Virus record (IMG/VR): IMGVR_UViG_2734482581_000010
DNA: 4,519 nucleotides
Origin: a virus
Taxonomy: Duplodnaviria > Heunggongvirae > Uroviricota > Caudoviricetes
Reading direction: 5' to 3' (one strand)
Within the stretch, counting starts at the first letter, position 1. Every line of letters starts with the position of its first letter. The translations under genes and the position numbers were made by a program. Under the pieces are notes generated by a model. It was not told where the DNA came from and searched no databases. It saw nothing but the letters and a program-made list of their open reading frames with translations. Positions 1 to 4,519 of the stretch are shown piece by piece.

Positions 1-60
1 CTCTCGTCTGGGGAATATCTCCCCGGCAGCCTTCAGGGAAAAATATCATCAGATGGCTGC

Positions 61-414
61 TTAAAAAAAGAACAAATGGTAGTGTCCGCTATTGCCAGTA
101 CACCTCAATTGCTCTGCGGCTTCGCTCAGAGCTGGCGTATGTTCCCGGCCTACTGATTCACACAGGTAATCAACGAAACCGGACACCAGTTTTCGTTCGC
201 GAGGCGTGATCGCCCCACCGACCGGAGTCCAGTAATCGAAACCCAGTTGCAGGAGTTTGAAAAAACGCTTGTGGAATGCGTAGTTACACACACGCTTAAA
301 GTCTGCGTGTATCCACTCACCTATTTTGATTTGATGCAGAAAATCGCAACTCTCCGGCGTCGCCGGGAGAAGTAATCCGGAAGAGGTTTGTTTGACCAGT
401 TGTATATGTGCCAT
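61..414 (-). CDS. hypothetical phage protein, about 117 aa from ATG 414..412 (the ORF track's longer version starts at an in-frame TTG at 456)
   Basis: Open frame on the minus strand. The ATG at 414..412 has GGAG about 8 nt upstream and lies 38 nt after the stop of the upstream gene. The TTG at 456 overlaps that stop but has no better ribosome-binding site. The C-terminus reads ...HLFFF from a T7 run (A7 on + at 63..69), so the 3' end may be affected by a homopolymer error. No recognisable family. Confidence 0.45.
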   Translation of the reverse strand: MAHIQLVKQTSSGLLLPATPESCDFLHQIKIGEWIHADFKRVCNYAFHKRFFKLLQLGFDYWTPVGGAITPRERKLVSGFVDYLCESVGREHTPALSEAAEQLRCTGNSGHYHLFFF

Positions 415-452
415 CGGCTTTCTCCGGTGGCACGGTGTTACACAGCAGGAGT

Positions 453-740
453 TCAATCCTGCTCAAGATTGTAGATGAGTTTATTCTTCAGCAAAAGCAG
501 AAAACCAGCCTTAAAACCAATCTCTTTCAAAACCCGTAATGATGTGACAAATTCGTCCTCACGCAAAATAAAACCGTCCGTCAGAAGTCCATTACAAAAA
601 TAAAATAACACAGCACCGCTCTTCCTTTGTTGAGATTGCAAACATCTAATGCGGCAATGGCTGACAATCGCTCCATTCTCAACGCGCACAGCATAGAGGC
701 CATTTTCACTAAAAATTTCACGCAATTCTTCGATTTTCAT
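453..740 (-). CDS. hypothetical small phage protein (95 aa)
   Basis: ATG at 740..738 preceded by GGAAGGA about 8 nt upstream; stop TGA at 455..453. Same strand and close spacing with the neighbouring gene. No recognisable motif. Confidence 0.5.
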   Translation of the reverse strand: MKIEELREIFSENGLYAVRVENGAIVSHCRIRCLQSQQRKSGAVLFYFCNGLLTDGFILREDEFVTSLRVLKEIGFKAGFLLLLKNKLIYNLEQD

Positions 741-989: not shown

Positions 990-1145
990 TTACTTCCTGG
1001 ATTCGTAGTCTACGAAGACAGCGACCTCCGTCTGGCCGGTTCGGATTCGTACCTCACAGAGGTCTTTCCTCGTTACCAGTGCCGTCACTATGACGGTTAA
1101 ACAGATGACGATCAGGGCGATTAACATCGCCTTTTGCTGCTTCAT
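990..1145 (-). CDS. hok: Hok/Gef-family type I toxin (51 aa, HokC/HokD-like small membrane toxin)
   Basis: Translation MKQQKAMLIALIVICLTVIVTALVTRKDLCEVRIRTGQTEVAVFVDYESRK has the single hydrophobic helix and the conserved LCE-R-R-G--EVA-F--YE core that I recall from Gef/RelF/Hok proteins. ATG at 1145..1143 is preceded by AAGGAG with a 9-nt spacer. Confidence 0.85.
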   Translation of the reverse strand: MKQQKAMLIALIVICLTVIVTALVTRKDLCEVRIRTGQTEVAVFVDYESRK

Positions 1146-1202
1146 AGCCTGCTTCTCCTTGCCTTTCGGCATGTAAGAGGCTAACCTACATGTGCAAAGC
1201 AT
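990..1202 (-). CDS. mok: Mok-like overlapping leader ORF (70 aa, in-frame N-terminal extension of hok)
   Basis: ATG at 1202..1200 with GAGG about 8 nt upstream. The N-terminal extension MLCTCRLASYMPKGKEKQA resembles the in-frame Mok leader of chromosomal hokC-type loci as I recall it. Whether it is translated is an inference. Confidence 0.5.
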   Translation of the reverse strand: MLCTCRLASYMPKGKEKQAMKQQKAMLIALIVICLTVIVTALVTRKDLCEVRIRTGQTEVAVFVDYESRK

Positions 1203-1258
1203 GAAATTGGCCTCAGATTAATGTTAAGCGTCTTGCCGGACGCGTAATGTTAACTGGG
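1194..1258 (+). ncRNA. sok: putative Sok-like antisense RNA (position approximate)
   Basis: Hok-family loci carry a short antisense RNA across the mok translation-initiation region. On the + strand there is a weak promoter-like pair, TTGCCT (1159..1164) and TAACCT (1182..1187) with 17-nt spacing, pointing into the mok start, and an imperfect hairpin TTAAGCGTC/GACGCGTAA at 1223..1246. The ends are not determined from sequence. Confidence 0.25.
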
Positions 1259-1321
1259 GCTTTTCTCTATCTGCCTTTTGGTGTTCATGCCTGAAGCAGA
1301 TAGCCTCAAGCACCCGCAGTC

Positions 1322-1372: not shown

Positions 1373-2059
1373 TCACTCCTTCTCTTCTTTACCGTAGTGG
1401 AGTTGACCAATTTTGATAAGAGGGCGTCCCTGAGATTTGCGGTGTAGATTGGTATCGCGCAGAGAATACACACAGCCACAATATTCCTGCTGATAGAATT
1501 TTTCGCGCTTGCTGATTTCAATCATACGGGACGAGCCGCCCTGCTTGCGCCAGTTATAATCCCAGTACACCATGCCCGGATAATGCGCGACGGCTCGCCG
1601 CCCACAGTCGTTAACCTGCTGCATATTTTTCCAGCGTGAAATGCCCAGTGAACTGCTGATCACACTGAAACCATTTTCAGCGGCGTACAGCGCTGTCCGC
1701 TCAAAACGCATGTCAAAACACATGGTGCAACGGATCCCTCGTTCGGGCTCCCATTCCATTCCTTTGGCTCGTTCAAACCAGTTGTCTGTGTCGTAATCAG
1801 CATCAATAAACGGCACGCCGTGTTGTTCAGCAAAGCGAATATTCTCATCCTTACGAATTAAATACTCTTTCTGAGGATGAATGTTCGGGTTGTAGAAAAA
1901 GATGGTGTAGTCGATTCCCGAGGCCTGAAGCGCCTCCATCACCTCACCGGAACATGGAGCACAGCAAGAGTGCAGTAGTAGTTTGTTTGCCCCGTTTGGG
2001 AGCTCCAATTTGGGCCGTTTGAAATCAGCAACTGTCATAAATATGTTTATTGGGGTCAT
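1373..2059 (-). CDS. queH: QueH-type epoxyqueuosine reductase homolog (DUF208 family)
   Basis: 228-aa ORF with the N-terminal [10 protein letters not shown] motif, internal CTMC and C-terminal QEYCGC motifs characteristic of DUF208/QueH. No clear Shine-Dalgarno before ATG 2059 or the in-frame ATG at 2038, so the start is uncertain. Confidence 0.8.
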
Positions 2060-2620: not shown

Positions 2621-3043
2621 TCACAGTATCGCCTCCTGAAAATTACCCTGATAGAAAGCCAGTACACGCTGCATAGCTTCGCTCTTCCGGCACTCGCGAC
2701 AGATTATATTCAGGCGCCTGTCGTAGCGGCGTATTTCTCCGTCAGGTAATGACCAGATAAGGTCCGGATCAACAACAACCGGTTTCCTCACCTTTACTCT
2801 CGAGAGTTTTTTGCGGGCGCTTTGCCAGTCCTTGCGAGCCTGTTCAGACGGGAATAAGCCGTAGCCAGAATTATATACATCACCACTTGCGACCAGTTCT
2901 ATGCATAAGCGACCGACAGACGCACGACTGATACCTGTTTCATCTGACAACTGCCGAATCGTGACCCGACCGTCCTGATGCACGAGTTCCACAATTCGCG
3001 TCTTCAGTTCTTCCCGCTGTTCGGGAGTAAAAGGTTTCGCCAT
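2621..3043 (-). CDS. hypothetical protein with N-terminal helix-turn-helix-like segment (140 aa)
   Basis: ATG at 3043..3041 with AGGAGG 4 nt upstream, 14 nt after the DnaC-like stop. The segment VTIRQLSDETGISRASVGRLCIEL looks like an HTH recognition unit. Family not recognised. Confidence 0.6.
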   Translation of the reverse strand: MAKPFTPEQREELKTRIVELVHQDGRVTIRQLSDETGISRASVGRLCIELVASGDVYNSGYGLFPSEQARKDWQSARKKLSRVKVRKPVVVDPDLIWSLPDGEIRRYDRRLNIICRECRKSEAMQRVLAFYQGNFQEAIL

Positions 3044-3057
3044 AAATCCTCCTGAAA

Positions 3058-3711
3058 CTACTTAACAACCCTCGAATGGCTAACATTCGGACGCCAGCTC
3101 TCCCAGTTAAAATTCACCCAGCGCCCGNNNNNNNNNNNNNNNNNNNNNNNNNNNNNNNNNNNNNNNNNNNNNNNNNNNNNNNNNNNNNNNNNNNNNNNNN
3201 NNNNNNNNNNNNNNNNNNNNNNNNNNNNNNNNNNNNNNNNNNNNNNNNNNNNNNNNNNNNNNNNNNNNNNNNNNNNNNNNNNNNNNNNNNNNNNNNNNNN
3301 NNNNNNNNNNNNNNNNNNNNNNNNNNNNNNNNNNNNNNNNNNNNNNNNGATAGCTGCCGCTAAGTGATTCTTCCCGGTACCAGGTTTTCCGCTGAACGCA
3401 AAATTTGTACACCCGGTCATCAGTTCATCGGCGATGGATTTCGCCTGGCTTAACGCGTATCGCTGGCCGTCGTTCTGCACCTGGTAATTCGCAAACGAGC
3501 ATTTACGGTGCAACGGCTGGATGCCTGAGCGATTCAGAATTTTTTCCACCCGCAACTGGCGATTCAGGCGGTTGATCTCCTCGCTACGTTTCTGGCCTTC
3601 AGCAAGTTGCCACTCGCGCCACTCCGCTACCGTTCTGAATGGGGCGGTTACATGTGGCGGGGTCAGTCGGCGGATGCGTTCCAGAACGCCGCCTGTCGCA
3701 ATATTTTTCAT
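3058..3711 (-). CDS. dnaC: DnaC-like replicative helicase loader (AAA+), phage-type; CDS interrupted by the N gap
   Basis: The N-terminal 121 aa align with my recollection of E. coli DnaC (NRSGIQPLHRKCSFANY vs NRSGIRPLHQNCSFENY) and include Walker A FSGKPGTGKNHLAAAI. The C-terminal WVNFNWESWRPNV matches the DnaC tail WVIFNWDSYRSRV. The middle of the gene falls in the 221-N gap, so length and frame across it are not real. Confidence 0.85.
   Translation of the reverse strand: MKNIATGGVLERIRRLTPPHVTAPFRTVAEWREWQLAEGQKRSEEINRLNRQLRVEKILNRSGIQPLHRKCSFANYQVQNDGQRYALSQAKSIADELMTGCTNFAFSGKPGTGKNHLAAAIXXXXXXXXXXXXXXXXXXXXXXXXXXXXXXXXXXXXXXXXXXXXXXXXXXXXXXXXXXXXXXXXXXXXXXXXXXGRWVNFNWESWRPNVSHSRVVK
3128..3348. 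other. run of 221 N (assembly or scaffold gap, or masked region)
   Basis: Directly visible as n characters. It lies inside the DnaC-like gene. Confidence 0.98.
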
Positions 3712-4110
3712 GGTCCGTTACCCCCTGAAGCCTGGCGGGATCGCACTGTCCGGCAACGAGACGGTGTTAACCTGTCGGAGCAACGTCTCAGGCCGAACAC
3801 CTTTCGGCGCGAACAGGCCCTGGTATTCATTGGCGATGCTGTGTCGAATCACCTGCTCAGGTGTAAAACCCTGCTGACGGAATTTTTCCAGTTCCCGTAT
3901 CGCCCCGTTAGCGCCCTGCTCCGTTCGAATCGGTTTTCGCAATGCCTGTCTGAACCGGACCCACTCATGCCAGAGTGTTTCCGGCAACCAATCGGGCAGC
4001 TCAATAGCCTCCGGCTCGAATTTTTTAGACGCTCGTTTTTGGCGAGGGGGAGATCAGTATTTAGATCTTCCTCTTCCTCTTCCTCTGGTAACGCTTTTTG
4101 ATCCGTTTGT

Positions 4111-4129
4111 GTAACGCTGGCAGCGTTAC
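4111..4129. repeat. 19-bp dyad-symmetric site GTAACGCTG-G-CAGCGTTAC (iteron-like)
   Basis: Perfect 9-bp inverted arms around one central base, read directly from the sequence. A GTAACGC half-site also occurs at 4088..4094. Confidence 0.45.
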
Positions 4130-4318
4130 CTTTTCGTTTCAGTTCGCGTATTTTTGTTACTCGCTCGTTTGTAACCGCCCGTTTTTTTTAGAGCTTTTTC
4201 CGTTATGACGTTCAAAGTTAGGTAGAGAAAGCCCTCCGTCATTTTCGACCAGCCATCCAACCTGAATTAACGCATCAGCAAAACCAGACATAAAAGTGAT
4301 GCGATCTATTGCACTTTT

Positions 4319-4339
4319 TGTAACGCCGCGAGCGTTACA
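4319..4339. repeat. 21-bp dyad-symmetric site TGTAACGC-CGCGA-GCGTTACA (second copy of the same motif)
   Basis: Perfect 8-bp inverted arms with the same GTAACGC-N5-GCGTTAC core as 4111..4129. Related GTTAC-N10-GTAAC at 4156..4175 and a TTAACGC half-site at 4267..4273. Confidence 0.45.
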
Positions 4340-4394
4340 ATCTGCATTACCGTCTATCATTTGTTGATCCGCCCATGCCCAGAAGCGAATAACC

Positions 4395-4519
4395 TGAGGT
4401 AGCCTGAGTTTAACGGACACTCCTTCCTGAAATAGAATGGCATCAGAAGGAGCTAATAATGAGCAGAAAAACCCAACGTTACTCTAAAGAGTTCAAAGCC
4501 GAAGCTGTCAGAACGGTTC
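4395..4519 (+). mobile_element. left end of an IS3-family insertion sequence (partial; continues beyond the window)
   Basis: Terminal sequence TGAGGTAGCCTGAGTTTAACGGACAC starts with TGA and has GGACAC at positions 21 to 26, the same layout as the IS3 left inverted repeat as I recall it. It is followed 64 bp later by an OrfA-type start. Confidence 0.75.
4459..4519 (+). CDS. IS3-family transposase OrfA, N-terminal fragment (continues beyond the window)
   Basis: ATG at 4459 preceded by AGAAGGAG with a 6-nt spacer. Translation MSRKTQRYSKEFKAEAVRTV matches the N-terminus of IS3-family OrfA proteins; I recall this exact start from an IS600-like element but cannot verify it. Confidence 0.8.
   Translation, partial: MSRKTQRYSKEFKAEAVRTV

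Follow-up and report, generated by a model that had tools for sequence, protein, structure and literature searches.

Three lesions in a YdaU-family replication initiator gene of a Rac-like Shigella sonnei prophage

Gene content of the window and identity of the initiator gene

We analysed a stretch of viral DNA of 4519 bases (the window), whose genes of interest are encoded on the minus strand and are described here from the right end inward. The right end of the window is the left end of an IS600 element (4395..4519, plus strand), recognizable by its terminal sequence TGAGGTAGCC..., by the orfA ATG at 4459, and by matches annotated as 'IS3-like element IS600 family transposase' at 97% identity. 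It is followed by the remnant of a YdaU-family initiator gene (3718..4394, minus strand), which alignment to intact 789-bp genes identifies as codons 36-262 of a 262-amino acid protein, distributed over three frames. Further inward are ydaV, a DnaC/IstB-like helicase-loader gene (3058..3711, minus strand) interrupted by a run of N, a DUF977 gene (2621..3043, minus strand), a small hypothetical gene on the minus strand between the DUF977 gene and queH, queH itself (1373..2059, minus strand), and hokD (990..1202, minus strand) accompanied by its sok RNA. Next come a Rem-family gene and what remains of a DUF1367 gene, and the window closes with the right end of a second IS600 copy (1..107, plus strand). 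This copy has the same orientation as the one at 4395, and positions 4412..4519 of the reverse-complemented window correspond to 4762..4869 of L004, one of the S. sonnei loci described below.

The order ydaT, ydaU-type gene, ydaV, DUF977, hypothetical, QueH and HokD is found in Rac-like E. coli prophages, and the window agrees with it. The Rfam match to the sok antitoxin RNA (1140..1315, minus strand) scores 117 bits against a gathering score of 59 and adjoins the hokD-type Hok/Gef ORF; this type I toxin-antitoxin pair appears to be intact within a decayed prophage. The DUF1367-family gene (61..456, minus strand) is truncated by the left-end IS600, and the 131-amino acid ORF listed for it enters the IS end.

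The N run within ydaV (3128..3348) is a scaffold gap whose flanks map with 100% identity to L004 (5902..7072 and 7387..10513). It holds 221 N in place of 314 real bases, so that its length is approximate. Finished assemblies have an intact ydaV, which encodes 248 amino acids with matches to PF01695 and PF00308. The gap most likely arose because S. sonnei carries a second, similar ydaV copy (L008). The window looks like a short-read scaffold ending in IS repeats. The earlier note on this DNA took the gap as a sign of draft-quality sequence, which is right for the scaffold and has no bearing on the lesions described below.

In a megablast search of complete E. coli genomes the initiator gene was found in 681 genomes at a coverage of at least 80%. 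The best matches align 696 query bases with 704 record bases, and homology begins at query base 66. The annotated homologs are one 789-bp gene that encodes 262 amino acids and is placed between ydaT and ydaV, which argues against the structure of two separate genes that the note had considered for them. They are named 'hypothetical protein' or 'phage replication initiator YdaU family protein' (NCBI), and ydaU in phage Rac. Three intact copies served as alignment references (L001, 2898..3686; L002; and the Rac phage L003, 1228..2016). The gene in L001 (2898..3683) matches phrog_2509, 'replication initiation protein', along its whole length (profile positions 1-262 of 277, E 1.2e-89), and the C-terminal half of the homolog matches the PHROGs family 'primosomal protein' (E 1.7e-39) as well as PHROG 678, 'replication initiation O-like' (E 7.3e-26). 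A Pfam search with the 262-amino acid homolog gave no match, including to PF07120 (DUF1376), and an NCBIfam search gave nothing significant; among the databases tried, only PHROGs assigned a family. The last 19 residues (244-262, window 3721..3777) weakly resemble the C-terminus of the primosomal protein DnaT (NF002770, E 0.006), but the score of 16 bits falls far short of the cut-off of 201 and of significance.

By sequence, the window remnant belongs to the YdaU family, PHROG 2509 (residues 36-262, 97-98% DNA identity), and it lies directly upstream of ydaV (3711..3058), as expected of a lambdoid early-right operon. It is spread over three frames and truncated at its 5' end. The window copy is a pseudogene of the YdaU family, not a functional member. 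The initiator function of YdaU is putative, given family annotation and gene order, and a literature search on the function of ydaU and ydaV returned no experimental paper and nothing usable.

The K-12-type YdaU (285 amino acids, with DUF1376; a copy is present in L008) has only its C-terminal domain in common with the 262-amino acid protein. Because the sharing is confined to that domain, the YdaU-type protein looks modular, with a charged linker that joins an N-terminal domain, which varies, to a C-terminal domain, which is conserved. The layout is also that of lambda O and P, where a two-domain initiator with a charged linker is encoded directly upstream of the helicase-loader gene, and related phage records label the homolog 'DNA replication protein O'. 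However, the homolog matches the O-like family only in part, and the loader here is DnaC/IstB-like, whereas that of lambda is P.

Three lesions across the initiator gene

Translation of the minus strand in three frames confirms the earlier reading of the initiator as three successive frames, with switches at a T8 run (4182..4189) and a G5 run (4046..4050). Both runs are present in the window, and T8 is its sole homopolymer of eight bases or more. The first piece covers residues 36-105 (...HNGKSSKK) and continues into eight out-of-frame codons and a stop, the second covers residues about 106-150 (RAVTNER...EEEEEEDLNTDLP), and the third covers residues about 153-262 (PPRQKRASKK...PPGFRG) up to the stop codon at 3718..3720. 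Each piece has 97-98% DNA identity to successive stretches of one E. coli 789-bp gene, and the frame assignment is therefore correct and not due to chance; the hand translation behind the note, which had allowed for an error of its own, holds. Adding one base at both runs does restore a single continuous reading from 4420 to 3718, as had been claimed. This repaired ORF would still be without the first 35 codons of the gene, given that IS600 begins at 4395.

Two spurious ORFs result from this arrangement. The first (87 amino acids, 4157..4420, minus strand) starts at a GTG within the IS600 end, runs through initiator residues 36-105 and ends with the eight out-of-frame codons (NGRLQTSE). The second (89 amino acids, 3718..3987, minus strand) starts at a TTG, represents the C-terminal part of the initiator and corresponds to FORC11_0720 [Shigella sonnei].

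The alignment to intact homologs that had been proposed as a check places the frame changes at the A run and at a TCCCCCT repeat, and shows that neither is the one-base homopolymer change that had been supposed. The T8 run, which is A8 on the coding strand, is A6 in intact homologs, and the gain of two bases shifts the frame. At the second break (junction at 4045..4051, minus strand), intact homologs have TCCCCCTAAATCCCCCT where the window has a lone TCCCCCT, a loss of 10 bases that shifts the frame again. The C5 run still has its five bases; what is lost is one TCCCCCT repeat and AAA. Losing one repeat unit together with the spacer is what slippage between short direct repeats characteristically leaves behind. 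Since a gain of two and a loss of ten bases shift the frame in the same sense as the loss of one base, the one-base repairs work arithmetically. The deletion also removes part of the PLNPPR motif, which lies in the C-terminal domain shared with the K-12-type YdaU.

The largest lesion was absent from the earlier note. From 4395 on, IS600 sequence replaces the first 103 bases of the gene, and the start codon and 35 codons are gone. IS600 was inserted in codon 35/36 of the initiator gene, and the window shows only one junction of this insertion. Both junctions are visible in L004, with a 3-bp GGT target duplication, and the missing 35 codons lie beyond the 1.2-kb IS600. The terminal sequence, orfA and the duplication seen in L004 are those of an IS600 element of the IS3 family.

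The YdaU of Rac-like prophages (WP_038340159.1 / WP_001737256.1; ydaU of MN652886) is the same gene at 93-98% DNA identity and shares its neighbourhood with the window, with ydaT upstream and ydaV, DUF977, QueH and hokD downstream. In contrast to it, the window copy is without codons 1-35, has A8 and not A6, is without 10 bp of the TCCCCCT repeat, and cannot encode the protein.

Recurrence of the lesions and alternative readings

The 87-amino acid ORF is diagnostic of this allele, as its first codons come from the terminal repeat of IS600 and its final eight are a product of the A8 frameshift. A search of the public collection for exactly this sequence gave 481 blocks, of which 14 have contigs longer than 1 Mb, and a cluster look-up found it on 492 contigs, where it is annotated as 'putative bacteriophage protein' or 'hypothetical protein FORC11_0721' [Shigella sonnei]. 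Most contigs with this ORF are 2-5 kb long. We fetched ten loci (L004-L013), on contigs ranging from about 55-73 kb up to nearly 1 Mb and 4.8 Mb. A8 is present in all of them by construction, because the look-up required it, and for this lesion only the abundance counts as evidence. The 10-bp deletion is not part of the ORF that was looked up, so that its presence in 10 of the 10 S. sonnei loci, compared with none of three intact homologs, is independent evidence. Across all of its 4298 non-N bases the window is 100% identical to two of the loci, L004 and L005.

Neither the A8 nor the 10-bp lesion was detected in about 685 complete E. coli genomes with this gene, and the best matches differ from the window at the lesions. 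An exact-pattern scan of species-representative genomes for the A8 context also returned nothing, in a set where Shigella is probably not separate from E. coli. One E. coli copy that seemed to be without the 10 bp in a short-query search was set aside, as its alignment revealed an unrelated insertion and divergence from the same site, and it is annotated as a pseudogene. The recurrence on many contigs, the deletion in all ten loci and the absence from E. coli indicate that the lesions are fixed mutations of a widespread S. sonnei allele and not the errors of one draft.

We consider it almost certain that the dead initiator is a true pseudogene with three independent lesions in a Rac-like cryptic prophage of Shigella sonnei. 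Of the two readings left open by the earlier note, genuine decay of a prophage replication gene is borne out by the 492 contigs and by the deletion in ten of ten independent loci, and homopolymer sequencing error fails on the same ORF recurring on those contigs, megabase-scale S. sonnei contigs among them.

We weighed four other readings. That the gene is intact and both breaks are homopolymer sequencing or assembly errors of a draft genome is suggested by the N gap, which marks the window as a draft scaffold, and by the position of one break at the longest homopolymer of the window. This is very improbable, however: an ORF that depends on A8 occurs in many assemblies, the A run differs from intact homologs by two bases rather than one, the second break is a deletion in all ten loci and not a change of run length, and IS600 truncates the gene in any case.

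Just as improbable is a contingency switch in which a phase-variable A tract toggles the initiator. The tract does vary, with A6 in E. coli, A8 common in S. sonnei, and A9 in a rare S. sonnei-labelled allele. The A9 allele (L015, 1755..2161; L016, 1561..1967; L017, 1431..1868) is in frame with one extra Lys; it has no IS600 at codon 35 and instead carries its own, oppositely oriented IS600 following codon 136. All A8 and A9 alleles that we saw thus have an IS600 insertion in the gene, and the A8 allele also has the 10-bp deletion, so that a tract of another length cannot make the gene functional again. The tract is shorter in all of the best E. coli matches (236-237 bases against the 239 of the A9 query), and the A9 allele has no match of 99% identity among 687 E. 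coli genomes. We considered and rejected A9 as a widespread ancestor, given that no complete E. coli genome carries it. The A tract is polymorphic in S. sonnei, and A8 may have come straight from A6 or by way of A9.

Polymerase or ribosome slippage is known to occur on A8 runs, and A8 could in principle act as a slippery sequence, with ribosomal frameshifting or transcriptional slippage at A8 and C5 yielding a full-length initiator. We give this reading still less weight, in keeping with the earlier opinion that a double programmed frameshift is unlikely. Homologs with 93-98% DNA identity are read in a single frame with A6, so that the frame changes are not a conserved feature; no frameshift site is conserved, the second site bears the scar of a deletion, and the 1.2-kb IS element parts the start codon and 35 codons from the remainder. 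Equally remote is the reading as two or three separate small genes, which public annotation as the distinct hypothetical proteins FORC11_0721 and FORC11_0720 would favour, since the fragments are collinear and 97-98% DNA-identical with one 262-amino acid gene of about 680 E. coli genomes, and the 87-amino acid ORF is a chimera that starts in the IS600 terminal repeat and ends in out-of-frame codons.

Repeats within the gene and decay of the prophage

Within its linker region and close to it, the initiator gene contains two perfect 19-bp palindromes, GTAACGC-N5-GCGTTAC (4111..4129 and 4320..4338; two found against 0.02 expected), and extra GCGTTAC half-sites, with one at 4088..4094. Three AAACGRGCG motifs on the minus strand (4030..4038, 4162..4170 and 4176..4184; three found against 0.14 expected) flank both frame-shifting lesions. 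Intact E. coli homologs retain the palindromes and the AAACGRGCG motifs, and the K-12-type DUF1376 ydaU has neither. These elements may be the iterons of a lambda-like origin within the initiator gene. The lambda O gene contains the origin; here a counterpart is suggested only by the palindromes.

A hexanucleotide repeat, GAGGAA, encodes six Glu codons in the inter-domain linker (4068..4085, minus strand). Its copy number varies in S. sonnei assemblies, where the GAR run captured after a first GAG is 5, 11 or 13 codons long, and this explains the 18- and 24-base length differences between loci. The copy-number differences are seen in L006, L007, L009 and L010 around 6333, and may be a real variable-number repeat in a pseudogene or an artefact of long-read assembly. 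Two further loci depart from the common structure. In E. coli 61_150228 (L014, 1501..2340) the initiator has been disrupted independently by an unrelated insert of roughly 400 bp just after ACTGATCT, at the TCCCCCT repeat, and its annotation consists of two partial pseudogene pieces. In S. sonnei, the draft contig L011 has two remnants with A8 and the 10-bp deletion, at 6220 and 10341, which is either an IS600-mediated duplication or a misassembly.

The repeat-rich linker and the E. coli insertion at the same TCCCCCT site may point to a lambda-like origin within the gene and a local slippage hot spot. An initiator gene carrying its own origin, as lambda O does, with repeat-rich origin DNA making the segment prone to slippage, would cover the growth of the A tract, the 10-bp deletion, the GAGGAA change and the insertion in E. 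coli 61_150228 at the same spot. We regard this proposal as doubtful, the chances being well against it; if true, the architecture of the origin would steer how the initiator gene decays.

The reading that we prefer, a pseudogene with three independent lesions, can be set out as follows. The window is a fragment of a Rac-like cryptic S. sonnei prophage between two directly oriented IS600 copies, with the ydaU-type initiator gene occupying the position of lambda O, just upstream of ydaV. Transposition of IS600 into codon 35/36, with its 3-bp duplication, has separated the promoter, the start codon and 35 codons from the remainder. In the inter-domain linker, A6 probably became A8 by replication slippage, shifting the frame, and two TCCCCCT units separated by AAA probably lost one unit, 10 bp in all, by slipped-strand or microhomology deletion, shifting the frame again. 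The lesions themselves are seen directly in the alignments; the slippage mechanisms, the order of events and the loss of function are what we infer. No initiator would then be made, and the replication module would be non-functional as a unit, despite ydaV being intact in finished assemblies.

The surrounding prophage is visibly decayed. Finished S. sonnei assemblies show it as a remnant with three IS600 copies along with IS110-family and other IS3-family elements, a ydaT of 101 amino acids compared with 140, and an integrase fragment of 160 amino acids. Pseudogene formation driven by IS elements and by slippage is part of the reductive evolution of Shigella. The window shares with it the IS600 insertion with a 3-bp duplication, the small slippage indels and the IS-riddled prophage, and nothing here is distinctive compared with typical Shigella gene decay. 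The case is a routine IS- and slippage-driven decay of a Shigella prophage gene.

The frame breaks are best annotated as one pseudogene, and neither corrected as errors nor split into two hypothetical proteins (FORC11_0721 and FORC11_0720), a practice found in part of the public S. sonnei annotation. The question of whether the module is functional also has its answer: the replication module in the window is in all likelihood dead.
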